From a virus (Duplodnaviria; Heunggongvirae; Uroviricota; Caudoviricetes), in IMG/VR virus record IMGVR_UViG_2671181100_000005: DNA of 9,275 nucleotides. One strand, given 5' to 3'. The notes under the pieces are model-generated. The model ran no database searches, had not been told where the DNA came from, and saw nothing but the letters and a program-made list of their open reading frames with translations. A program made the translations under genes and the position numbers. Below, piece by piece: positions 1-9,275 of this stretch (the first letter of the stretch is position 1; each line of letters starts with the position of its first letter).

Positions 1-90
1 GGTCATGGCCTCCATAGTGATGGCGGGTCCTCCTTGTGGGGTGCCCTGCCACGGGGCGGGAGCATCGCGGAAAAAGGCTAGTTTTTGCAT
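1..90 (-). CDS. 5' end of an unidentified ORF running off the left edge
   Basis: Minus-strand frame is open from ATG at 90..88 (MQKLAFFRDAPAPWQGTPQGGPAITMEAMT...) to position 1. An alternative ATG at 15..13 is preceded by AAGGAGGA. No similarity to lambda gpA N-terminus by eye. Confidence 0.2.
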   Translation of the reverse strand, partial: MQKLAFFRDAPAPWQGTPQGGPAITMEAMT

Positions 91-251
91 TTTTATTCGT
101 CATCACCACCAATGCAATATATTGATATGACTTGATGTTTTATTTTTCGGTGTCGATTTCGATTGTTTTTTGTTCATCACTGACGCATAACGCCCACCAG
201 CGCAACGCTGAAAGCCAGTCAGTAAACTGGCTTCGGTCATTGTGCACTACG

Positions 252-794
252 TTACTTGTCTTTATCCGGCTGAAACTTATCAGGCACATTTCCGGTAGTT
301 TCCATCAGATAATCGGACAGCATTCGCGGGATGTTTTCATCAAGTTTTGTGCATGCGTTACAGGCTCTGACAACTTCTTTTTTCAGGCCATCCAGCATGG
401 CGGGGGTCATCTGTGGGAAGCTCCTTTGCATAGTAAGCGGCAGGCTGCCCATGATTGAAGAAATCTGACTCGCCAGTTTTGAAAGCGCATATATACAAAA
501 TTCCGTACTAATCACATCGCCGCGTTCGCGCTCGTTTTTAAGCTCCTGCGCCTCCGCCTGCGCTGTCAGCAATCTGATCCTGACTCGCAAAAGCTCATCA
601 TTATCAATCTCGCCTTTGTCGTCTGTAATCTGGTTAATTGCATTGCTAACCCGATTGTCTATTACGCTGGCAACATCATAAAACGCCTCGCGGCCTTTAC
701 GTTCAACGGGAGTCACTCCCCACTTGTCGAACGCTGTCGCACTTACACGGCAGCTTTGCGCCATGTTTTTTTTGTTCATCAGGTGCGATTTCAT
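252..794 (-). CDS. Terminase small subunit, lambda Nu1-like
   Basis: ORF-track protein matches my recollection of lambda Nu1 across the length, e.g. LLTAQAEAQELKNERERGDVISTEFCIYALSKLASQISSIMGSLPLTMQRSFP versus Nu1 LTRAQADAQELKNARDSAEVVETAFCTFVLSRIAGEIASILDGLPLSVQRRFP, and C-terminal LDENIPRMLSDYLMETTG versus LDELIPGLLSEYIEQSG. Start chosen at ATG 794..792 (GGGGA 6 nt upstream); ATG at 779 is an alternative. Lies directly downstream of the cos site, as in lambda. Confidence 0.85.
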   Translation of the reverse strand: MKSHLMNKKNMAQSCRVSATAFDKWGVTPVERKGREAFYDVASVIDNRVSNAINQITDDKGEIDNDELLRVRIRLLTAQAEAQELKNERERGDVISTEFCIYALSKLASQISSIMGSLPLTMQRSFPQMTPAMLDGLKKEVVRACNACTKLDENIPRMLSDYLMETTGNVPDKFQPDKDK

Positions 795-799
795 CAATA

Positions 800-990
800 T
801 CCCCACTTAAGTAATGTTTCAGGTTGGTGTATTGGCTTTATCTTTTCCTTTTTATTCATAGAGATAGAGCGAACAACAAAACCACCACCAGCACCCGAAA
901 AAGGCTCATAAATAGCGAAAACCCGCGAGGTCGCCGCCCCGTAGCCTACCGGATCGCCGGAAAGGACCCGCCAGCCAGAACGGGCCCTAA
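800..990 (-). other. Lambda-type cos site: cosN 12-nt cohesive end at 928..939 (complement), cosQ-like at about 945..985, divergent cosB-like at about 800..927
   Basis: Reverse complement of 907..940 reads GGGCGGCGACCTCGCGGGTTTTCGCTATTTATGA, identical to the first 34 nt of lambda as I remember them, then diverges. Reverse complement of 941..973 reads GGCGGGTCCTTTCCGGCGATCCGGTAGGCTACG, close to the lambda right end (GACGGGTCCTTTCCGGTGATCCGACAGGTTACG). Confidence 0.75.
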
Positions 991-995
991 TTTCA

Positions 996-1379
996 TCAAC
1001 CAATCAACTTATAGCGACCATCCCGTGCATTGCGACGTACACGCTCAATCTTGAGGCATAGCGCCGCATCTGGCTTTTTTGGGACAGGTACGCGGCAATA
1101 TTCAGAAGCTCGAGGAATATTGTTTATCCAGTCGATCACTTCACTTAAATACCAGGCCTTACGCCCTTCCGTAACCTGTACGCGTTCGGGGAACTCTCCG
1201 CGAGCCTCAAGGTTTAGCAATGTGCGACGGCTAAGGGTAGTAAGTTCCATCACCTGATTCATATCAACAAGGCGTTCACTTAAACGCATTTTGTCAGCAA
1301 TAGCCTTTAATTCCTCTACTGCTGGATCCGGATACATCATTTCGGCAATTGGCTTAAGGTCATTGTAATGATTCTGCAT
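996..1379 (-). CDS. AlpA-family HTH DNA-binding protein, second copy, with N- and C-terminal extensions
   Basis: Core MELTTLSRRTLLNLEARGEFPERVQVTEGRKAWYLSEVIDWINN resembles Phage_AlpA-type HTH proteins. ATG at 1379 is preceded by AAGGGGGA. Starts 11 nt after the D-like gene stop and ends next to cosQ. Confidence 0.7.
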   Translation of the reverse strand: MQNHYNDLKPIAEMMYPDPAVEELKAIADKMRLSERLVDMNQVMELTTLSRRTLLNLEARGEFPERVQVTEGRKAWYLSEVIDWINNIPRASEYCRVPVPKKPDAALCLKIERVRRNARDGRYKLIG

Positions 1380-1390
1380 TGTATCCCCCT

Positions 1391-1732
1391 TTACACACGA
1401 GCCAGCGGCTGAACAGAAATACCTGAGCCAACAAACGCGGCAACCTTTGCCGACAGTTCTTTTACAGACTCAGGCCAGTTCAGAGCATCAACATTTAAAA
1501 CACCTGTCTTATAAACCTGTGCCTGTGTTTTTTTCGCTGTGTCGATTTGTACAGCGGAAACATAAACCGCTTTGCCTGCGCTCGTTCCATCCCATACCAC
1601 TAGCGCACCAGTTGCATCTTCCTGCATCAGTGGCGTAAACGCAGGTATTACCCCTTTATTGGCTGAAAATATCCCCAGCGTAGTAACCAGTGCTTCAGTG
1701 CCAGACATGAGTTCAGTGTAATGAGTAGCCAT
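1391..1732 (-). CDS. Head decoration protein, lambda gpD-like
   Basis: PAFTPLMQEDATGALVVWDGTSAGKAVYVSAV and YKTGVLNVDALNWPESVKELSAKVAAFVGSGISV parallel lambda gpD [32 protein letters not shown] and [35 protein letters not shown] (from memory). 113 aa versus 110 aa for gpD. RBS GGGGGAG precedes the ATG. Confidence 0.85.
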   Translation of the reverse strand: MATHYTELMSGTEALVTTLGIFSANKGVIPAFTPLMQEDATGALVVWDGTSAGKAVYVSAVQIDTAKKTQAQVYKTGVLNVDALNWPESVKELSAKVAAFVGSGISVQPLARV

Positions 1733-1741
1733 TGCTCCCCC

Positions 1742-2788
1742 TTAGCCAATGCGAACGGTAACAAAACGATTGATGCGGGCCGGTATTGGCTGTGGTGCTG
1801 AATGTGTCTGCACATATTCAATAGCCGGATCACCAGGCACAATATAGTTTTTCGGTGCAAGTTCGGCTTTAGTCAGCCCCATCCGGATTAGCTCCGGATC
1901 CTGAATACCGCCATAAGCGACAATCCCCTGAAGAGCCGTATTGCCAAGCACCATCAAATCAGGATCAAGGAAATATTTTTCAGTTCCGTCCTCGTCGGTA
2001 TAACGCCCGCTGTAAACAACAATCGCAACATCGCCCATATACCCTTTAAAACTCACCGAATCACCAAGGTCTTTAAGGGCCGTTTCCAGTTCGGAATTAG
2101 AACCACGACGAGTATCCAGAGCCTCTTTTATCGCCCTGAATGAACGGTATTTCTTCCATACATTACCGCCCATAATGATAATATTAGTGACGCCCTCACT
2201 AAATTCTGCGTAGCTCTCAATATCATCATTTGGATCAAAAGCTTCTTTATCCTTACCTGACCACTCAGCACCGCCAGACTGAGTGATGATATTTTGTGGT
2301 TTAATATTCCAGTCCAGCTCATAACGTTCAATACCATCGCCCTCAATGATATTTTTCCCCGTTGTGATTGCCTGAACGGCAAGCCATTCAATACGTGCAC
2401 GAATAGCTTTAGCCTGATTTACAATCGCCTGTTTAACTTTAATATTACGCGCTCCAAAAGCATTGTATTGCTCAGGTGATACACCAGCAGGGCGCACAGC
2501 TAACTTATTTGGATCAATGCTGCTTTTCGGTTTCATATAGCCAGGGCGAATTGTTTTTGATTCGTATCCCTCATCTCGTGAAACTTTACTGCCCACCATA
2601 GGAGAGCAAAACGCCGCGATCGGGATATTTGGATCGTCGATCGTATCAAGAATAATGTCTCTCGATTCAAACATTACCGAGCGAGTGAAAAACAAACTGG
2701 TAAACAACGCATTTAATTTTTTTTGCACATCTTCAGCATTAGCCACCTGCACAAGCTGTGTAGGCGAATATAAGTCAACCATACTCAT
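1742..2788 (-). CDS. Major capsid protein, lambda gpE family
   Basis: Long collinear similarity to lambda gpE as I recall it: NIITQSGGAEWSGKDKEAFDPNDDIESYA, DTRRGSNSELETALKDLGDSVSFKGYMGDVAIVVYSG, MVLGNT, PGDPAIEY. Start set at the MSM motif (ATG 2788, or 2782 with AAAGAGG 6 nt upstream), like lambda E's MSM start. The longer track ORF (start 2869) is probably an upstream extension. Confidence 0.9.
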   Translation of the reverse strand: MSMVDLYSPTQLVQVANAEDVQKKLNALFTSLFFTRSVMFESRDIILDTIDDPNIPIAAFCSPMVGSKVSRDEGYESKTIRPGYMKPKSSIDPNKLAVRPAGVSPEQYNAFGARNIKVKQAIVNQAKAIRARIEWLAVQAITTGKNIIEGDGIERYELDWNIKPQNIITQSGGAEWSGKDKEAFDPNDDIESYAEFSEGVTNIIIMGGNVWKKYRSFRAIKEALDTRRGSNSELETALKDLGDSVSFKGYMGDVAIVVYSGRYTDEDGTEKYFLDPDLMVLGNTALQGIVAYGGIQDPELIRMGLTKAELAPKNYIVPGDPAIEYVQTHSAPQPIPARINRFVTVRIG

Positions 2789-2953
2789 CCTCTTTACATT
2801 CATTACAAATAATTGTGAATATATTCTATTACCGATGTCTGCTATGCGAATACATGCAACCAAGTGCAATGTTGTATAAAATATGCCGTGACAACTTCAG
2901 TGCTGATAATTCGTGTTAATGTATTTACTTCCTTTGGTCGGGATTTATGTAGC

Positions 2954-2993
2954 ATGCCGGAAAATCTATTTTTTTCCGGCATCTTTTTGTTTG
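2954..2993 (+). terminator. Perfect 11-bp inverted repeat stem-loop followed by a T-tract (candidate intrinsic terminator, plus-strand orientation)
   Basis: ATGCCGGAAAA (2954..2964), 7-nt loop, TTTTCCGGCAT (2972..2982), then CTTTTTGTTTG. Lies just downstream of the ssb stop on the opposite strand; on the minus strand the U-tract is absent, so the orientation and role are uncertain. Confidence 0.4.
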
Positions 2994-2999
2994 CAGAAT

Positions 3000-3422
3000 T
3001 TAAAACGGTATATTATCGCCGTACGGATCATCATTCCCCGACTGTTGTTTTGCCCTGTTCAGTGCGTCAGTGGCCTGCCCCTGCTGGCCTTTTTTGCCGC
3101 CCGGTCGCGCTGTTCGCGCACTGATCACGCTGTCTGCGATAACCTGCCAGCCCTGCCGCGTTTCGCCGTTCTGGCCTGTCCACTGGCTTACCTGCATGTT
3201 ACCCGCCACGCTCACCAGTTCGCCTTTGTGGTGTTTTGCCAGTGCGTCGGCCTGTCTGCCAAACGCCAGGACGGATAACCACATCATCGCCGTTCCGTCA
3301 TCTGCCTGGCTGCACGGAAGGGGGACCGCCATACTAGCCATCGCCATTTGTGTACCCTTGCTGGTGGTCTTTAACTGCGGATCAGCCACCAGCCGTCCGT
3401 AAGCCGCTATCTGTGCTGTCAT
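3000..3422 (-). CDS. ssb: Single-stranded DNA-binding protein (SSB)
   Basis: OB-fold-like N-terminal region (YGRLVADPQL..., WLSVLAFGRQADALAKHHKGELVSVAGNMQVSQWTGQNGETRQGWQVIADSV) parallels E. coli SSB. Gly/Gln-rich linker and acidic C-terminal tail ...DDPYGDNIPF match the SSB signature ...DDDIPF. Start ATG overlaps the upstream ORF stop (ATGA). Confidence 0.85.
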   Translation of the reverse strand: MTAQIAAYGRLVADPQLKTTSKGTQMAMASMAVPLPCSQADDGTAMMWLSVLAFGRQADALAKHHKGELVSVAGNMQVSQWTGQNGETRQGWQVIADSVISARTARPGGKKGQQGQATDALNRAKQQSGNDDPYGDNIPF

Positions 3423-3708: not shown

Positions 3709-3905
3709 CCTTCACCTGTTCACCTTTTGATATTTTATCTTTTAATTCATAATGTTAAGGGGTGAACAGTTTCACAAAAACTATTCACCAACTGTTCACC
3801 ACTGTTCACNNNNNNNNNNNNNNNNNNNNNNNNNNNNNNNNNNNNNNNNNNNNNNNNNNNNNNNNNNNNNNNNNNNNNNNNNNNNNGTGAACAGTGGTGA
3901 ACAGT
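3709..3905. repeat. Iteron array of octamer TGTTCACC / GGTGAACA (P4 ori/crr-type), candidate replication origin
   Basis: Exact octamers at 3717..3724 and 3793..3800 (TGTTCACC) and 3761..3768 and 3896..3903 (GGTGAACA). Gap-truncated copies at 3803..3809 and 3887..3893, plus degenerate copies (3709..3716, 3783..3789). Sits immediately downstream of the primase-helicase gene. Confidence 0.6.
3810..3886. other. Run of 77 N (unresolved or masked sequence) inside the iteron region
   Basis: Directly visible in the sequence. Flanked by a perfect 19-nt inverted repeat (3791..3809 ACTGTTCACCACTGTTCAC; 3887..3905 GTGAACAGTGGTGAACAGT). Confidence 0.95.
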
Positions 3906-3917
3906 TATTCCATAAGT

Positions 3918-5735
3918 TTAATTTTTGCTATCGTCATTAGTGACCGATACACATGATGGCATCCAGTCTTCTGATTCCTCCGTCAGTGTCACGTTTGAAC
4001 GCAAACCGTGCTTCGTTTTCCGTTTCATATACTCCCTGCCATATTCCGCCATTGCCCCCGGCATATCTTTACCGAAGCGCGTCAGTGTTACAGGTTTACC
4101 AAACCCATGTGCCTTCATATAAGCCAGATAGGCATGATAGAGATACCTGCGCGGGCTGAATGGCACAATTTCAGCATTACCCACTAACAGGCCATCACAC
4201 ATTACCGACGCCATGAGATAGCCGCAGAAGTCCACCAGCGAATCACCTTCACGCTTTATCGCGAGTGCTTCTTCTGATTTCTGCTGCTCATATAAAAGGC
4301 GTCTGGCTTCGTCCTGGTCAGCAAACCGTGTAAGCAGATGACGAATCACTACCGCCAGCTCACCTTCTATTTTTTCCGCCAGCATTGAATCGCGTTCGTT
4401 CTCCGGTACAACTTCCGAAAAATTGAATATCACCCGACGTCGCGAGATCCCCCCACTGCGGTCACTGAATGACATAGCGTTATTGTTAACCGCCAGCACT
4501 ACTGCCGGGATACGCGTTGAATATGGGGCTTTATGTTTTGGGTCGATTGCCACCTTGTCACCGCCTGTAATAGCCTTAATTCCCGCCCCATCACCAGCGT
4601 AGCGGGTCATATCCGGCATGATAATCAGCGAAAAGCCAACCACTAACGCGCGTTCCCTTGCATCTTCCAGCGCCTTCATGCTCGCTGATACTGTATTAGC
4701 CTTACCCGCCAGCATGGTGCAAATCTCCGCCATCACGCTTTTACCACTTCCCCCTGGACCTGTTACCTCAATGAATAACTGCCAGTCGTACCGGTTCGCC
4801 AGCACCATGAATAATGCAGCCAGTACGCGATCCGCCTTGCGGTCATTCTCAGCCACCGAACGGCGTAACCACTTCCAGAAATTCGGCGCATGTGTTGCCA
4901 GCGTTTCCCCCTCTGCTGGTGGGCTGAAAGGTAATTCACTGGCAATTAACAACCAGTCGTTTTTGTTATGCTCCCGAAAATTACCTGTTCTGGTATCAAA
5001 TACCCCGTTACTGAATCCAATCAGGTTACGGGCTGTATTCCCCATAACAGGCAAACTTAACTTCATGGTATCGACCGCCGATTTAATGGCGTTCTGCGAA
5101 TAGCTGATCTCCGCATCAATGAAAATCTGTGCCATAGCTCGCTGTAATTCTTTATCCTGTACTGGCTCCCATACAACGCCGTTGTAATGGTGAACAGTGT
5201 CAGAGTCAGCATGAATCGCCAGTTCACCGCCATAATGTGCCAGGAGAACTTCGCCGCGTTGACTTGCTCCCATCTGGTTAAGCGCCAGTGATGAAGCGTT
5301 ATCGTCTTTTACCCGCTCTTTTTTCTTTACAGGCAGTTCAACTACCTTTTTCTTTTCCGCCTGCTCTGCCCGTTCACGTTCCAGATATTCGCGCCAGTTC
5401 TCCCGTTTCTGGCTGTGCATTCCTTCAGGGTAATAATCAGCATCCCTGACACCTGCCGCTGCCAGTTTCTGCCCGATGGTATTAACAAGCCCCGGACGCA
5501 ATAACCCCGCCTGGTAGAGACGCACGCGATAGCGTCCGTCCGGTACGATTTGCAGGTTGTCCAGTTCGGCAAGTTGTTGCTCTCCAAGCCAGACAGGTGG
5601 CACGTTATCGCCAGCCAGTCGCCCGTCCTGTTCCTGCCACTGCTTCGCATGTGCCCACGCATCACTACCCGCAAAAATGATGACTTCCGTCATTTTGTCA
5701 CGCGGCTGGTGTTTTAAATTTGGCGCTTTTTTCAT
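3918..5735 (-). CDS. Replication protein: primase-like N-terminal region fused to an SF3 (D5 / P4 alpha-type) helicase
   Basis: Walker A motif VTGPGGSGKS with a downstream hydrophobic-acidic Walker B-like stretch. Size and position match a satellite pri/alpha gene, followed by its iterons. Start set at ATG 5735, which overlaps the upstream ORF stop (ATGA); the track ORF starts 15 nt further upstream at 5750. Confidence 0.88.
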   Translation of the reverse strand: MKKAPNLKHQPRDKMTEVIIFAGSDAWAHAKQWQEQDGRLAGDNVPPVWLGEQQLAELDNLQIVPDGRYRVRLYQAGLLRPGLVNTIGQKLAAAGVRDADYYPEGMHSQKRENWREYLERERAEQAEKKKVVELPVKKKERVKDDNASSLALNQMGASQRGEVLLAHYGGELAIHADSDTVHHYNGVVWEPVQDKELQRAMAQIFIDAEISYSQNAIKSAVDTMKLSLPVMGNTARNLIGFSNGVFDTRTGNFREHNKNDWLLIASELPFSPPAEGETLATHAPNFWKWLRRSVAENDRKADRVLAALFMVLANRYDWQLFIEVTGPGGSGKSVMAEICTMLAGKANTVSASMKALEDARERALVVGFSLIIMPDMTRYAGDGAGIKAITGGDKVAIDPKHKAPYSTRIPAVVLAVNNNAMSFSDRSGGISRRRVIFNFSEVVPENERDSMLAEKIEGELAVVIRHLLTRFADQDEARRLLYEQQKSEEALAIKREGDSLVDFCGYLMASVMCDGLLVGNAEIVPFSPRRYLYHAYLAYMKAHGFGKPVTLTRFGKDMPGAMAEYGREYMKRKTKHGLRSNVTLTEESEDWMPSCVSVTNDDSKN

Positions 5736-6031
5736 TTCTGCTCTCTCCACGCGGCAATCATGTTTTTCAGTTCCTGTAGTTTTTTATCCACATCCACACG
5801 TGACACATGGTTATTTCTGGAAGTCGGGATTTCCCGCCGGAATCTGCAAATAAAGATCTCCACGTTCAGCGAACTAAGAAATGAATAGCCATCACGGATA
5901 AAATACACACGGTCAAACATCAGTTCTTTTACCGTTACTCTATTACCGTTCTTATCCAGATAAATAGCGCCGGGGATAATTTGGGGGTGTGCATAACCGC
6001 TGGCAGTCAAGCCAGATAAATACGTTCTCAT
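5732..6031 (-). CDS. Hypothetical protein (99 aa), coupled to the primase gene
   Basis: Stop overlaps the primase start (ATGA). GGGGA lies about 9 nt upstream of its ATG. No recognisable motif. Confidence 0.55.
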   Translation of the reverse strand: MRTYLSGLTASGYAHPQIIPGAIYLDKNGNRVTVKELMFDRVYFIRDGYSFLSSLNVEIFICRFRREIPTSRNNHVSRVDVDKKLQELKNMIAAWREQK

Positions 6032-6037
6032 GATTAT

Positions 6038-6358
6038 TTATCCCCGATTTGAATCAGTATTCGCTTTCTTTATAGCATTTAATGCATCTGTGGCATTTTT
6101 AATGGTGCACCGTAACGAAATATCAAAATGTCCAAGCATTGCCAGTAACAAACCGATATTACCCATATCAATGCGCATGGCCTTTTCGTCATAGTCCTCA
6201 TTTTCTGACGCATGCCACATCAGGCTACCAATTGACGCAACAGCCATTGATATATTGTCAGTAGCCCCATCCGCAGCGGAATAAACCTTTTTAGCAATAT
6301 CATGCTCACAGTTAAAATGCGGATTAATCAGGTACTGGTAATTTGACATATCAGGCAT
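6038..6358 (-). CDS. Hypothetical protein (106 aa)
   Basis: ATG at 6358 overlaps the stop of the upstream 67-aa ORF (ATGCCTGA). RBS AGGGGG is present. Stop lies 6 nt before the next ORF. No recognisable motif. Confidence 0.55.
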   Translation of the reverse strand: MPDMSNYQYLINPHFNCEHDIAKKVYSAADGATDNISMAVASIGSLMWHASENEDYDEKAMRIDMGNIGLLLAMLGHFDISLRCTIKNATDALNAIKKANTDSNRG

Positions 6359-6554
6359 GGCACACCCCCTGACGAATACGGGCGGCGAATACCATCACGC
6401 AGCCAGCCGGGGATTGCTGGCGTGCTTCCTGTTCGCTGGTGGCCACGATGTGAATCACGCGCGGTTGTGCGGTGCTCAGGGCGATAAAACGCCAGATGTA
6501 TTTATTCAGGTTGTACGAGTCCCGCCCTTGCGGGTGTATGGTATGATTTCTCAT
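6351..6554 (-). CDS. Hypothetical protein (67 aa), first gene of the minus-strand operon leading into the primase
   Basis: This is the last 67 codons of the 348-aa track ORF, starting at ATG 6554 with GAGG 5 nt upstream. The upstream part of that ORF is low-complexity and antisense to a better plus-strand gene. Confidence 0.45.
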   Translation of the reverse strand: MRNHTIHPQGRDSYNLNKYIWRFIALSTAQPRVIHIVATSEQEARQQSPAGCVMVFAARIRQGVCHA

Positions 6555-6697
6555 AGCTGCCTCGATAATCTTGCTATCGTTGGTGGTTAGAAGCCCCGTT
6601 ACTGCTCCTACAGTGCGGGGTTTCGTCGTTTCTGCACCTTGCATTAACAAGGTGTAAGCAACTTTATTTATAGGTGGCTTACATGTCAATGCTTTTA

Positions 6698-6729
6698 TGT
6701 AAGACTTTTTATGTGTATATTGTCTTACA
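6698..6729. promoter_or_regulatory. 8-bp inverted repeat (TGTAAGAC ... GTCTTACA) in the divergent promoter region; candidate operator
   Basis: TGTAAGAC at 6698..6705 and GTCTTACA at 6722..6729, 16 bp apart, overlapping a TATATT -10-like hexamer (6716..6721) about 30 bp upstream of the 6751 start. Confidence 0.35.
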
Positions 6730-6750
6730 CTTTCATTGAGAGGATTACAG

Positions 6751-7056
6751 ATGGCTACAGGTTCAAAAAACGCAAAATCACAATCACTGACAGCTCGGAT
6801 CCCGCATGATGTTATTGAAGGCATGGAATCCGTAAAACTGGACGGTGAAAGCAACGCCGGATTCATAGTAACCGCCATGCGCGGTGAAATCGCCCGCCGC
6901 CAGGCAGAAGGAAGCGGAGAAAACCTCCTGGTTTCTTCGCTCGATGCCCTAGCGCAGGTGGAAAAAATCGGAGTCAAAGCCGCCGAGGAGATCGGGCAAC
7001 TCGTCACCGTCGCGCGTGAAGAACTCCAGCGACGCAAGGTCAAAGAGCAGGAATAG
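6751..7056 (+). CDS. Small DNA-binding-like protein, possible ribbon-helix-helix regulator (101 aa)
   Basis: ATG at 6751 with GAGAGGA 7 nt upstream. N-terminal SLTARIPHDVIEGMESV resembles RHH (CopG/Arc-like) beta-strand-helix starts; the C-terminus is predicted helical and charged. Divergent from the minus-strand operon. Confidence 0.5.
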   Translation: MATGSKNAKSQSLTARIPHDVIEGMESVKLDGESNAGFIVTAMRGEIARRQAEGSGENLLVSSLDALAQVEKIGVKAAEEIGQLVTVAREELQRRKVKEQE

Positions 7057-7113
7057 CCACTATCAGCGCCATAGTTTGAGGAACGCAGGCGCATTGCTTT
7101 ACAGGACAGCACC

Positions 7114-7293
7114 ATGAGCGACACAGAATCAACCAAAACACCATCACCAACTCGTAAGAGACGACGCAAAAATATAGCGCATGAACATGAATCAGAAAGA
7201 TTCGCACCTTGTTCGTTTGCTCTTGAGAAATTCCTTAAAGAGCACAGGAAAAAGCTCTCGTTGCAAACCTTGGAACGAACCAAATCTGACTGA
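7114..7293 (+). CDS. Small basic protein (59 aa), hypothetical
   Basis: Hand-translated ORF MSDTESTKTPSPTRKRRRKNIAHEHESERFAPCSFALEKFLKEHRKKLSLQTLERTKSD, below the track's 60-aa cutoff. AGGA lies 7 nt upstream. Followed by a strong terminator hairpin. Confidence 0.35.
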   Translation: MSDTESTKTPSPTRKRRRKNIAHEHESERFAPCSFALEKFLKEHRKKLSLQTLERTKSD

Positions 7294-7358
7294 TCACATT
7301 GCCCACCAGCCGCAAATGTGGCATTGTTGGTGATGCGTTCAAGTTTAGTGTGTATCCA

Positions 7359-7386
7359 TTGGCGACCGCCCCCGGTCGCCTTTGTT
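7359..7386 (+). terminator. Rho-independent terminator (plus strand), between convergent genes
   Basis: GGCGACCG (7359..7366), loop CCCC, CGGTCGCC (7371..7378), then TTTGTTTT. Confidence 0.6.
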
Positions 7387-7407
7387 TTATATGTCATATG
7401 CTCCCCT

Positions 7408-7617
7408 TTACGCTGCCTTACCTGAATTAATGCGATCCCGGCTTTTAACCCATTCCATAACCTCGGACAGCAGCCAACCTACAGAACGCCCACCAAGATT
7501 ACGGCGAGACGGAAAGCTCCCTTTTTTCTCCAGTTCGTAGCGTGTAGTGCGACACACTCCAGTTAACTTACGACATTCATCCTCACGGATTACGCGATCT
7601 TCATTTATTTCACGCAT
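7408..7617 (-). CDS. alpA: AlpA-family phage regulatory protein (transcriptional activator / excision regulator)
   Basis: RVIREDECRKLTGVCRTTRYELEKKGSFPSRRNLGGRSVGWLLSEVMEWV is a typical AlpA HTH. Start set at the internal Met (MREINED..., 70 aa, the usual AlpA size). The track ORF extends to 7704 through an AT-rich stretch that looks more like promoter than coding sequence. Confidence 0.8.
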   Translation of the reverse strand: MREINEDRVIREDECRKLTGVCRTTRYELEKKGSFPSRRNLGGRSVGWLLSEVMEWVKSRDRINSGKAA

Positions 7618-7997
7618 ACAAAAACCTACATAAAAATTACGTATATAAACTTTTCTCTTAGCTGTAGATATATGAGATCGGATATTACTTAGATTCTTTT
7701 TCACCTATTAAATTAAAAACACAACCATGCTAAAGGCTTTGTTCGCTAAGGTTCGTAGAAGCTCGTTAGTGTTTAAAATCGTGTCACGAGTTTTTAAGCG
7801 ACGCAACAAAAAATGTCGTCATTTGGCATGACACCTGAATTACCTCATTAAAAACAAATAGATAAACCATCAGATGTTGGAACAATCAAGAAACAGAGAA
7901 TAAGAACTCAGAAGAAGACATTTCAATTTTTTTCGATAGTTGACACATATAAAGAGAAGATATTTGCAGATATTCCCCGATATTCTAAGATCTATTC

Positions 7998-8036: not shown

Positions 8037-9275
8037 TCAAGAATTTTGGGGGTAAATTCGCGGGGTCATAACAACGATTTTTTCATCATTGTTCTGGAGA
8101 AGCTCGAGACGGTCTACCCATAGATTAAGAGCATCACGTTTTGCATCAAGGTAGCGGGAGTGGTTATAGACTCGTTGCATCCCTGGCATCTGGTGGGCTG
8201 TAAGCTGCTCGACAATATGCGGATCCACGCCTAAATCGTTCAGCATGGTTGTAAATGTGTGCCGGATATCGTGTAACGTCCAGGGGGCTTGATTAATTCG
8301 TCTGTGCGCTGTTCTTCCGTACTCTGCTACCGAAGATTGTCCTTTCAGTTCACCAAGCAATAAGCCTGTGTGTCTGTTCTGCTCCACCAGTTGCGTGACG
8401 AACGGCAAAATGCTTTCCGGTATTGGCCTGAATATGGCGACCTTCGTTTTGCTGTGCTCCTTCGGTACTGTCCAGAGCATTTCTTTAAAATCCCACTCCT
8501 GCACCTCAGAGCGCCTTAGCTCAGTGGTACGGCATCCAAAAACAATCAGGAGGCGAATTAGGGCGCTGTAGTATGGCGGGAATATTTTGTCATCCAGGGC
8601 GCGGAGTAATTCCCCAAGCTCCTTATTTGTTAGTACGCGCTCGCTCACTTCTGCTTTTTTTCCCACATCACCGACAACCATATCATCAAGAACGTTGCTG
8701 ATTGCGTATCGTCGTTTTCGGCAGTACTTAAGCGCCTGTTTGCATACCTGTAGCAAAAATCCGGCAGATACTGGGCTTCGCTTTGCCATCTGGTCAAAAC
8801 ATGCCAACCAGTGCCGTAGCTCGCATTTTTCCAACGGCAAAGCGCCAATCTGGCTGATTATGTGTTTATTGATCCGGCTTTTCAGTGATTCGTAGTCAGT
8901 GCGCTTTTCCTTTGCATACGATTCAAGCCAGTAAGTGAGCGCTTCCTTAACTGTCACGGGGGCTAACGCATCCTGTACAGCACGATTAAGCTCATAGCGC
9001 GGATTTTTCCCCTCAGCCAGCCAGGCGCGACACTGTGCTGCTTTTTCCCTGGCTGCTTTCAGACTCAGATCGGGATAATTGCCCAGTCTCAGACGTTCCG
9101 GTGATACCTGCCTACCAGTTCCGGCCCTGTAAGTGAAATACCAGGTTAACAGGCCGCTGGTGGAATGTCTTACGCTAAGATTGCCACCGTCATTAAAAAA
9201 GGCGTTTTTTGTGGTTGGTGATCCGCTTAATTTTCGTAAAAGAGTGTCGCTAAGTCTATGAATTGCGCTGCTCAT
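8037..9275 (-). CDS. int: Tyrosine recombinase / integrase, P4-type
   Basis: N-terminal arm-type region (NDGGNLSVRHSTSGLLTWYFTYRAGTGRQ... YPDLSLKAAREKA) is typical of P4-family integrases. C-terminal catalytic motifs HDIRHTFTTMLNDLG and RVYNHSRY are present. The ATG sits exactly at the window edge (9275). Confidence 0.92.
   Translation of the reverse strand: MSSAIHRLSDTLLRKLSGSPTTKNAFFNDGGNLSVRHSTSGLLTWYFTYRAGTGRQVSPERLRLGNYPDLSLKAAREKAAQCRAWLAEGKNPRYELNRAVQDALAPVTVKEALTYWLESYAKEKRTDYESLKSRINKHIISQIGALPLEKCELRHWLACFDQMAKRSPVSAGFLLQVCKQALKYCRKRRYAISNVLDDMVVGDVGKKAEVSERVLTNKELGELLRALDDKIFPPYYSALIRLLIVFGCRTTELRRSEVQEWDFKEMLWTVPKEHSKTKVAIFRPIPESILPFVTQLVEQNRHTGLLLGELKGQSSVAEYGRTAHRRINQAPWTLHDIRHTFTTMLNDLGVDPHIVEQLTAHQMPGMQRVYNHSRYLDAKRDALNLWVDRLELLQNNDEKIVVMTPRIYPQNS

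Follow-up and report, generated by a model that had tools for sequence, protein, structure and literature searches.

A candidate ribbon-helix-helix repressor/operator switch between alpA and the primase operon of an Escherichia coli phage satellite

Architecture of the locus

The DNA described here is a stretch of 9.3 kb (9,275 nucleotides; IMG/VR record IMGVR_UViG_2671181100_000005), herein called the window, which represents a phage satellite of Escherichia coli of the Gram-negative phage-inducible chromosomal island (PICI) type. Its region 6555–7386 comprises two small plus-strand genes and the intergenic DNA to their left. The region may be the maintenance switch of the satellite, and the product of the first gene is a candidate for the repressor that is missing from published work on these islands. 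The two open reading frames (ORFs) are located at 6751–7056 (101 aa) and 7114–7293 (59 aa), where an earlier model-made annotation that used no database searches (the sequence-only reading) had placed them. As that reading also had it, the pair faces away from the minus-strand primase operon. This operon consists of an Icd-like gene, orf106 (106 aa), a DUF4222 gene, and the gene of a D5/P4-type primase (3918–5750), in an order that is kept in relatives. The Icd-like gene (6351–6554; NF033153, 71.2 bits) encodes 67 aa and is the first of this leftward operon. On the other side, alpA (7408–7704, minus strand; PF05930, E 4.8e-16) is convergent with the rightward unit. In the window, the gene of the 101-aa protein thus sits between alpA and the Icd-like/primase operon; the model island EcCICFT073 has it at the same place, as does every E. 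coli relative inspected.

The 101-residue YlcI/YnfO protein

The first plus-strand gene is preceded by a Shine-Dalgarno sequence, GAGAGG, 7 nt 5′ of its ATG (6751) and evolves under purifying selection, with a ratio of nonsynonymous to synonymous substitution rates (dN/dS) of 0.07–0.33. Its product is a clear member of the YlcI/YnfO family: residues 9–50 match the NCBIfam model YlcI_YnfO_N (NF041551) at positions 1–42 of 42 with 71.4 bits (cutoff, 30 bits; E 4.7e-20), phrog_6522 matches at full length, and the Prokaryotic Genome Annotation Pipeline (PGAP) gives an identical gene the same family name. The family is a compact one: at 50% identity, it forms 93 representative clusters. The form of about 101 aa, the satellite form, adds a helical C-terminal half of 50 residues and is spread over the Enterobacterales (Escherichia, Salmonella, Citrobacter, Klebsiella, Enterobacter, Yersinia, Serratia, Erwinia, Pectobacterium, Xenorhabdus, Photorhabdus, and Edwardsiella). 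A tblastn search of 50,697 phage records with the 101-aa protein gave no match at E 1e-3, and the Pfam, NCBIfam, and PHROG profiles contain no helix-turn-helix (HTH) or Stl-related family that matches it. The literature searched assigns no function to the YlcI/YnfO family and holds no functional study of it; the family is listed merely as an accessory "prophage-associated protein" (PMC13612085).

The domain plan of the protein comprises an Arc/Mnt-like ribbon-helix-helix (RHH) part at about residues 1–52, with a predicted β-strand 11–17 (QSLTARI), and a long helix at 59–100. In the AlphaFold (AF2) monomer, residues ~6–17 are extended and are followed by helices 19–28 and 35–52/54 and by the long helix 59–100; the predicted local distance difference test scores are 81.8 and, for the domain, 86.4. 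Because the strand of a monomer cannot form its sheet, the model is evidence for topology only. Profile–profile alignment of the family by hhalign places residues 8–30 on Arc 5–27 (P 0.0024) and residues 12–25 on Mnt 7–20 (P 0.027). Both alignments are in one register, in which R16-I17-P18 corresponds to Arc R13-W14-P15. R16, the residue aligned with Arc R13, is invariant; positions 12 and 14 vary between the repeat classes described below. Furthermore, family members show weak Pfam matches to PSK_trans_fac (24 of 31; best E 2.9e-4), CB_ParB_C, RHH_1, TacA1, Arc, and NikA-like, all of which are RHH-type families. The sequence-only reading had called the gene RHH-like. The family match, the predicted topology, the Arc/Mnt register, and the converging weak Pfam matches agree with it and make membership in the RHH superfamily likely; formally it falls short of proof, because no single test is significant alone. 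A full-length family profile gives a single, marginal match in the PDB, of residues 45–86 to the helix-hairpin-helix motif of Hef (E 0.006), in a region where Gly74 is invariant; this match is kept as a side note, since AF2 predicts a continuous helix there.

Short forms of 59 aa occur in EcCICFT073 and in two other relatives (L002 and L003). They contain the RHH part and lack the helix formed by residues 59–100. The C-terminal half (window 6901–7053, residues 51–101) is cleanly deleted from these short forms between repeated RRQ/QRRK motifs (compare L029, 8474–8653), and the elements with short forms carry direct instead of inverted repeats.

Predicted operator sites and two predicted divergent promoters

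The intergenic region 6555–6750 has a GC content of 0.408, compared with 0.468 for the window. The description of this region as AT-rich in the sequence-only reading applies to the promoter-proximal half, 6641–6750 (GC 0.318), and not to 6555–6640 (GC 0.523). That reading had also reported an 8-bp inverted repeat, which is exact and formed by TGTAAGAC (6698–6705) and GTCTTACA (6722–6729). It does not stand alone: a second inverted repeat of the same half-site, TGTAAGC (6653–6659) and GCTTACA (6677–6683), had been missed, which gives four sites. Four of the eight TGTAAG/CTTACA hexamers of the window fall within 77 bp (6653–6729), with centers spaced 25, 20, and 26 bp. The total of eight is not unusual (3.9 are expected, and eight are reached in 11 of 200 shuffles); beyond chance are their clustering and their conservation in relatives.

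The four predicted operator sites are arranged over two predicted promoters. Site 1 (GGTGTAAGC, 6651–6659) overlaps the predicted start of the leftward promoter and is kept within a class and replaced concertedly between classes. Site 2 (GCTTACA, 6677–6683) is inverted relative to site 1, abuts the leftward −35 element, and reads GGCTTACAT in all but one of the 11 distinct upstream regions of class 1. Site 3 (ATGTAAGAC, 6697–6705) holds the left arm of the 8-bp repeat and lies where a rightward −35 element would be, and site 4 (GTCTTACAC, 6722–6730) holds the right arm, abuts the rightward −10 element, and covers the likely start.

The leftward promoter of the Icd-like/primase operon (P_L) is predicted at 6661–6689 on the minus strand as a sigma-70 promoter with −35 TTGACA (6689–6684), a 17-nt spacer, and −10 TAAAGT (6666–6661). 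It matches the consensus at 10 of 12 positions, with an expected start near 6654. Regardless of the repeat class, 12 of 16 loci have a predicted TTGACn-17/18-TAnnnT promoter with 9–10 of 12 matches at this position (locus L023 has TTGAAA, 8 of 12), and the motif GTCAA(G/T) is nearly invariant. The predicted rightward promoter (P_R) has its core at 6712–6721 on the plus strand, TGTG followed by TATATT, with the −10 element at 6716–6721 between sites 3 and 4; its motif TGTGTATA(A/C/T)T is conserved across classes and genera. In the predicted geometry, sites 1 and 2 bracket the −10 element and cover the start of P_L, and sites 3 and 4 bracket the −10 element of P_R. The fragment 6690–6735, which had been proposed for an electrophoretic mobility shift assay, would therefore carry only the autoregulatory pair, and the pair at the replication promoter lies at 6651–6685.

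A further 8-bp inverted repeat, CACCTTGC...GCAAGGTG at 6635–6654 (plus strand), abuts operator site 1; in the leftward transcript it would form the 5′ hairpin. Several of the other repeat classes, not all, have a similar ACCTTGA...TCAAGGT.

Correspondence between repeat and β-strand in relatives

The relation between the repeats and the protein was followed in an automated census of 184 loci with 69 distinct upstream regions and 13 peptides of the β-strand, the part of the protein predicted to read the DNA. Each of the 13 peptides goes with a single repeat family. With residues 12–17 as the strand, SLTARI of the window goes with GGCTTACAT, LTTVRV with GAAACACAC, QISIRI with GAATCACA(C/G), QLNARF with GAATACCAT, MTTIRV with GTGA(G/T)ATA-type repeats, TVAARV with GTTGAACAC, and ALKARV of EcCICFT073 with GTGGCCCAC. 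The sole peptides with a common site are LTTVRV and LFTVRV, which differ at position 13, a position that is core-facing in the Arc register. Seven of the classes were first found by hand. Two expectations were stated beforehand and confirmed: an E. coli protein with the Xenorhabdus-type strand LTTVRV (P0021) has GTGTTTC sites, and variants with other strands, such as QISIRI, have their own repeats, with P0058 carrying GTGATT, as in the Klebsiella locus with QISIRI.

The layout is kept in other genera as site, ~17 nt, site, GTCAA(G/T), site, −10, site, with a different repeat sequence. All copies of a site change together between classes, and the positions and promoter elements stay fixed. Within a class, only the spacers drift, and neither the sites nor GTCAAG and TGTGTATAnT vary, a pattern that extends over Xenorhabdus, Photorhabdus, Serratia, and E. 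coli. Compared with the window, loci of a different repeat class have primases of 99–100% identity (L019, L020, L002), AlpA proteins of 99–100% (L002, L003), Icd-like proteins of 84–92% (L029, L003, L026), and an RHH C-terminal half of 94%. Because such similar copies sit beside different repeat classes, the repeats do not follow the primase, AlpA, the Icd-like protein, or the C-terminal half. The proposal of the sequence-only reading, a repressor/operator layout that controls the replication module, thus gains comparative support from the predicted sites over both promoters and from a covariation that, across the 184 loci, appears with the RHH β-strand only.

The rightward transcription unit and its small gene

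The second gene of the rightward unit (7114–7293, plus strand; phrog_21027, E 5e-15) encodes a protein of 59 aa that is basic, as had been noted from its translation (pI 10.0; 15 K+R versus 9 D+E), and has the invariant core ERFAPCxFxLExFLKE. The ORF is a real gene: between the window and other alleles, dN/dS is 0.15–0.23 in frame and 0.7–2.3 in the other two frames for the same pairs, indels stay in frame, and none of the 99 loci that have the motif shows a disrupted ORF. Four subfamilies of the small protein have unrelated N termini and a common P-x-x-FAL(E/D)-x-F(L/M) motif. A 17-nt inverted repeat inside the ORF (7208–7254) is rejected as the cause of the conserved core, since the core shows synonymous changes and is conserved at the protein level in four subfamilies. 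The gene is confined to Escherichia, and among 165 loci that were not chosen by gene calls, 66 have other content at this place. Among relatives, the slot 3′ of the RHH gene holds varying cargo. The sequence-only reading had counted the ORF as part of the unit, which it is as an optional passenger only; it is accordingly treated as optional cargo, putatively coexpressed with the proposed repressor. The small protein shows no match to a family, toxin, or defense system in Pfam, NCBIfam, or PADLOC, and PADLOC finds no defense system in either plus-strand protein or in the alternative cargo genes.

EcCICFT073 has the same module, with its short 59-aa RHH form and a small gene of 57 aa. The two genes have locus tags (C_RS30120 and C_RS30800) that are out of series with those of their neighbors and may be later annotation additions.

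Three structured elements follow the coding sequences on the plus strand. A hairpin GCGCC...GGCGC followed by ATTGCTTT (7066–7092) lies between the RHH stop codon and the small ORF. Every E. coli relative carries this hairpin, even one that has no small ORF (L026); taken alone in the window it is not significant (z = −1.2). It is possibly an attenuator or a 3′ stabilizer of the RHH message. A conserved block with a stem-loop, TGATCACATTGCCCACCAGCCGCAAATGTGGCATTGTTGGTGATGC (7291–7341), comes after the small-ORF stop codon and folds together with the terminator at z = −4.2. About 45 nt of it (TGATCACATTGCCCACCAGCCGCAAATGTGGCATTGT...) are conserved above the level of the upstream ORFs, even beside a different small-protein subfamily. 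The stem-loop ahead of the terminator resembles a 3′-UTR (untranslated region) small RNA, and its CCCACCAGC motif is duplicated in some relatives.

The third element is an intrinsic terminator, GGCGACCG-cccc-CGGTCGCC followed by TTTGTTTTAT (7361–7390), with a stem of 8 bp of which seven are G-C pairs (7361–7380; z = −4.9). Of 98 loci that have the small ORF, 93 carry it, and it occurs in at least five stem sequences, in which compensatory changes keep the pairing. The strong terminator of the sequence-only reading is thus real, with the correction that it begins 68 nt past the small-ORF stop codon and so belongs to the end of the transcription unit and not of the ORF. Its last nucleotide is 18 nt from the stop codon of the convergent alpA, and on the minus strand it has no U-tract; hence it is predicted to stop rightward transcription before alpA and should spare alpA transcripts.

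A candidate antisense RNA over the Icd-like leader

Just left of the operators, the plus strand holds an intrinsic-terminator-like hairpin (6590–6624) with a T-rich tail (6625–6637). The hairpin is GC-rich with many G-U pairs, and its consensus fold is more stable on the plus than on the minus strand (−21.8 versus −9.9 kcal/mol). In the alignment, 95.5% of the cells are paired against 86% in shuffles, and the covariation is 0.341 against 0.164, values that none of 500 shuffles reaches; slid controls stay at or below 0.11, and six pairs show double-sided changes. Such a hairpin implies a rightward RNA that ends near 6637 and would be antisense to the Icd-like leader and its ribosome-binding site. 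Such an RNA could start near 6554 from an extended −10-like element, TGgTATGAT (6539–6547, plus strand), although this assignment is uncertain: each of the 19 loci inspected has a TGnTATGAT or TATGCT motif, but this overlaps conserved His-Thr codons among the first of the Icd-like gene. It is accordingly a tentative proposal, somewhat short of even odds, that a plus-strand RNA of ~85 nt (~6554–6637) pairs with the ribosome-binding site of the Icd-like gene. A search of Rfam at a permissive threshold gave no regulatory RNA family near the region and no C4, isrK, or CI-type RNA.

The proposed switch

The published regulatory model of Gram-negative PICIs holds only an activator, AlpA. Overexpression of AlpA alone induces replication of EcCICFT073, and helper phage activates alpA (PMC6092414). 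The existence of a repressor is stated there to be unclear, and the differing induction strategies of Gram-positive and Gram-negative islands are called a mystery (PMC6092414). In the literature searched, AlpA is the sole regulator described for Gram-negative PICIs, and no repressor is described for EcCICFT073. AlpA of Pseudomonas aeruginosa is a processive antiterminator (PMC7969949, PMC9371919).

The architecture described above suggests the following arrangement, the core of which is assigned a probability of roughly 0.7. The 101-aa Arc/Mnt-type RHH protein would recognize its four cognate sites of 7–9 bp at 6651–6730. With sites 1 and 2 occupied, P_L and with it the Icd-like gene, orf106, the DUF4222 gene, and the primase gene would be off and the satellite quiescent. 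Occupation of sites 3 and 4, which lie on the protein's own P_R, would result in autoregulation. We infer both binding and repression, as opposed to activation, and the direction of regulation is read from the position of the sites. The rightward transcript would contain the hairpin 7066–7092 and, in ~60% of relatives, the small gene, and would stop at 7361–7390, which shields the convergent alpA.

Escape from this state is a separate and more doubtful part of the scheme. Herein, the helper phage would turn on alpA, and AlpA-dependent leftward transcription would cross the RHH unit in antisense orientation into the replication operon. By such convergent read-through, P_L would be bypassed and synthesis of the repressor hindered at the same time. 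The leftward path of alpA through 7407–6751 contains no canonical terminator and one weak terminator-like site on the minus strand (6928–6916). This route, for which we infer the link to the RHH protein, is regarded as rather less probable than its opposite. The longest alpA ORF encodes 98 aa and starts with GTG, PGAP annotates 70 aa in an identical copy, and the Pfam AlpA domain covers residues 36–86 of the long form.

Several observations weigh against the four-site switch. For the window protein, no Pfam RHH model reaches its gathering threshold. Foldseek searches of the PDB with models of the full-length protein and of the N-terminal domain give nothing significant, and neither do searches of the PDB with N-domain and wider-family profiles, which return no significant RHH match. 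P_R has no convincing −35 element and scores 8 of 12 by consensus, weaker than P_L. The short form of EcCICFT073, which has no C-terminal helix, is still inducible, so that this helix is not essential to the switch. The orientation of the sites varies by class between inverted pairs and direct repeats, and one binding geometry must fit both. Strands as similar at the predicted contacts as MTTIRV and LTTVRV have different sites, so residues beyond 12, 14, and 16 must contribute. Finally, because the sites and the N-terminal codons lie within ~100 bp, part of the one-to-one match is linkage. Linkage cannot explain the concerted replacement of three to four copies or the within-class footprints.

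The alternative that survives best, although improbable, is that the RHH protein autoregulates its own small operon only, with the replication operon under AlpA and perhaps the antisense RNA. This would agree with the sufficiency of AlpA for EcCICFT073 induction, with the variable cargo slot 3′ of the RHH gene, and with the conserved plus-strand terminator, which suggests control of the Icd-like gene at the RNA level. It leaves two of the four sites unaccounted for, however, since these lie on the −10 element, spacer, and start of P_L and are as conserved as the others in every class; moreover, the layout is kept in genera without a downstream cargo gene.

RHH proteins are common as antitoxins, and the adjacency and common orientation of the two plus-strand genes, together with weak Pfam matches that include PSK_trans_fac and TacA1, could point to a type II toxin-antitoxin pair that stabilizes the island, with the small basic protein as toxin and the repeats as its autoregulatory operator. 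An obligate co-occurrence of the two genes is not found: the small gene is missing in 66 of 165 loci and in all non-Escherichia relatives. The genes do not overlap, and the 57 nt between them contain a hairpin; the small protein is without a toxin-family match, and the short RHH forms, which lack the C-terminal half where a toxin would bind, still keep the small gene. The reading is rejected on the optional small gene and on these short forms, and is considered very unlikely.

Equally unlikely is a centromere-binding or architectural protein of the ParG/omega/pCXC100-ParB type that serves segregation or packaging of the excised element, with the repeats as a site like a centromere. The sole structurally sensible Foldseek match is the RHH ParB of pCXC100, and three family members weakly match CB_ParB_C; these matches are far below significance (E 6.7) or below threshold (Pfam E 2.7e-4), no gene of a ParA-type partner is found in the window or in relatives, and the sites number only four and lie exactly on two divergent promoters.

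Least probable of all is that the repeats are replication iterons, as satellites have them near replication genes, or sites of the primase/Rep, AlpA, or the Icd-like protein, with the RHH association due to linkage only: the repeats are indeed multicopy and element-specific, but they coincide with promoter elements, the mapped origin of Gram-negative PICIs colocalizes with the primase/SSB (single-stranded DNA-binding protein) genes (PMC10111431), and the iteron, AlpA-site, and Icd-like-site readings are rejected by the similar to identical proteins that accompany different repeat classes.

Comparison with known immunity systems

The proposed four-site switch is a standard RHH repressor/operator mechanism, in logic closest to the immI region of phage P22 and in position closest to Stl of the Staphylococcus aureus pathogenicity islands (SaPIs), a comparison by analogy. 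The P22 immI region contains two RHH repressors, Mnt and Arc, divergent promoters Pmnt and Pant, the sar antisense RNA, and a compact operator of 21 bp, and regulates an antirepressor. The satellite resembles it in its small RHH protein with a β-strand in register with those of Arc and Mnt, in predicted operators over divergent back-to-back promoters, and possibly in a short RNA antisense to the ribosome-binding site of the gene that heads the regulated operon. It differs by having one RHH gene instead of two, four sites spaced by ~20–26 bp, and a replication module headed by an Icd-like gene, and no sequence match between the two is significant.

Stl and Rpr, the master repressors of Gram-positive PICIs (SaPIs), are HTH proteins. 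Like them, the 101-aa protein is encoded beside the integration module and divergently from the replication operon, and is proposed to hold the satellite quiescent until a helper phage arrives (PMC6092414). Unlike stl, which is co-oriented with int and whose product is inactivated by bound helper-phage proteins, the gene is transcribed toward alpA and int, which face it, and AlpA is the route of induction (PMC6092414). Because there is no homology and the fold is RHH-like, the protein would be an analog of Stl/Rpr in position and logic and not a member of that group.

A third comparison concerns the Icd-like gene. The immI operon of P1 has the order c4 antisense RNA, icd, and ant, and P4 has CI-RNA immunity. 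In the window as in these phages, an Icd-like gene heads the regulated operon, which has a structured leader with a candidate regulatory RNA. In contrast to P1 and P4, the RNA is not of the C4, isrK, or CI type by Rfam but a candidate for a true antisense transcript, which would have a terminator of its own, and a protein is proposed as a further repressor.

The element and its relatives

The remaining genes of the window are on the minus strand and encode a tyrosine integrase (8037–9275), an SSB, lambda E-/D-like capsid and decoration proteins, a second AlpA-like HTH protein, and a small terminase. A run of 77 N (3810–3886; masked or unassembled) lies just 3′ of the primase gene within a low-GC stretch. 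An identical copy of 6300–7450 is found in E. coli CFSAN061763 between clpS and cspD. Among 5,426 complete E. coli genomes, 1,614 contain DNA resembling this 1.15-kb stretch; in 311 records, a place covers at least 80% of the query.

The late module differs between these islands. That of CFSAN061763 (L001, 5096–8302) encodes a fusion of a ClpP protease and a major capsid protein, and window 1–3000 is lambda E/D-like, as in L002 and EcCICFT073. Judged from annotation alone, this suggests mosaic exchange of modules between satellites. In some relatives (L020–L022, 1537–2310; L024, 3430–4008; minus strand), the leftward operon is headed by a Phage_ASH protein of 167–257 aa in place of the Icd-like protein of 67 aa. 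Between the RHH unit and alpA, relatives may have a Bro-N gene or an ORF of 178 aa, in agreement with the dynamic "Bro zone" described for this region (PMC10111431).

A minus-strand ORF of 348 aa (6351–7397) covers both plus-strand genes and also spans the terminator. It is rejected as a gene: both plus-strand genes show purifying selection in their own frames, and the minus-strand ORF is regarded as their antisense shadow. Of this ORF, PGAP annotates the last 67 codons alone, as the Icd-like gene. In the PGAP annotation of L002 and L003, Icd-like or "ash family" (pseudo)genes reach into the region.

Implications for Gram-negative PICIs

Gram-negative PICIs are widespread and mobilize virulence and defense genes, and the arrangement described here would add a repressor to a regulatory model that holds an activator only. 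If it is correct, it suggests how AlpA and convergent transcription flip the switch, and it supplies a functional hypothesis for the uncharacterized YlcI/YnfO family. The presence of the module in the model island EcCICFT073 makes the repressor question directly testable, with a predicted outcome of a knockout. The natural specificity classes would, if they hold, supply orthogonal RHH/operator pairs. In its broadest and correspondingly tentative form, to which somewhat less than an even chance is given, the proposal is that YlcI/YnfO RHH proteins are unrecognized master repressors of Gram-negative and capsid-forming PICIs, which would fall into at least 13 cassette-exchanged specificity classes, or "immunity groups," act together with a cis-antisense RNA on the Icd-like leader, and be overcome by helper-induced AlpA read-through.

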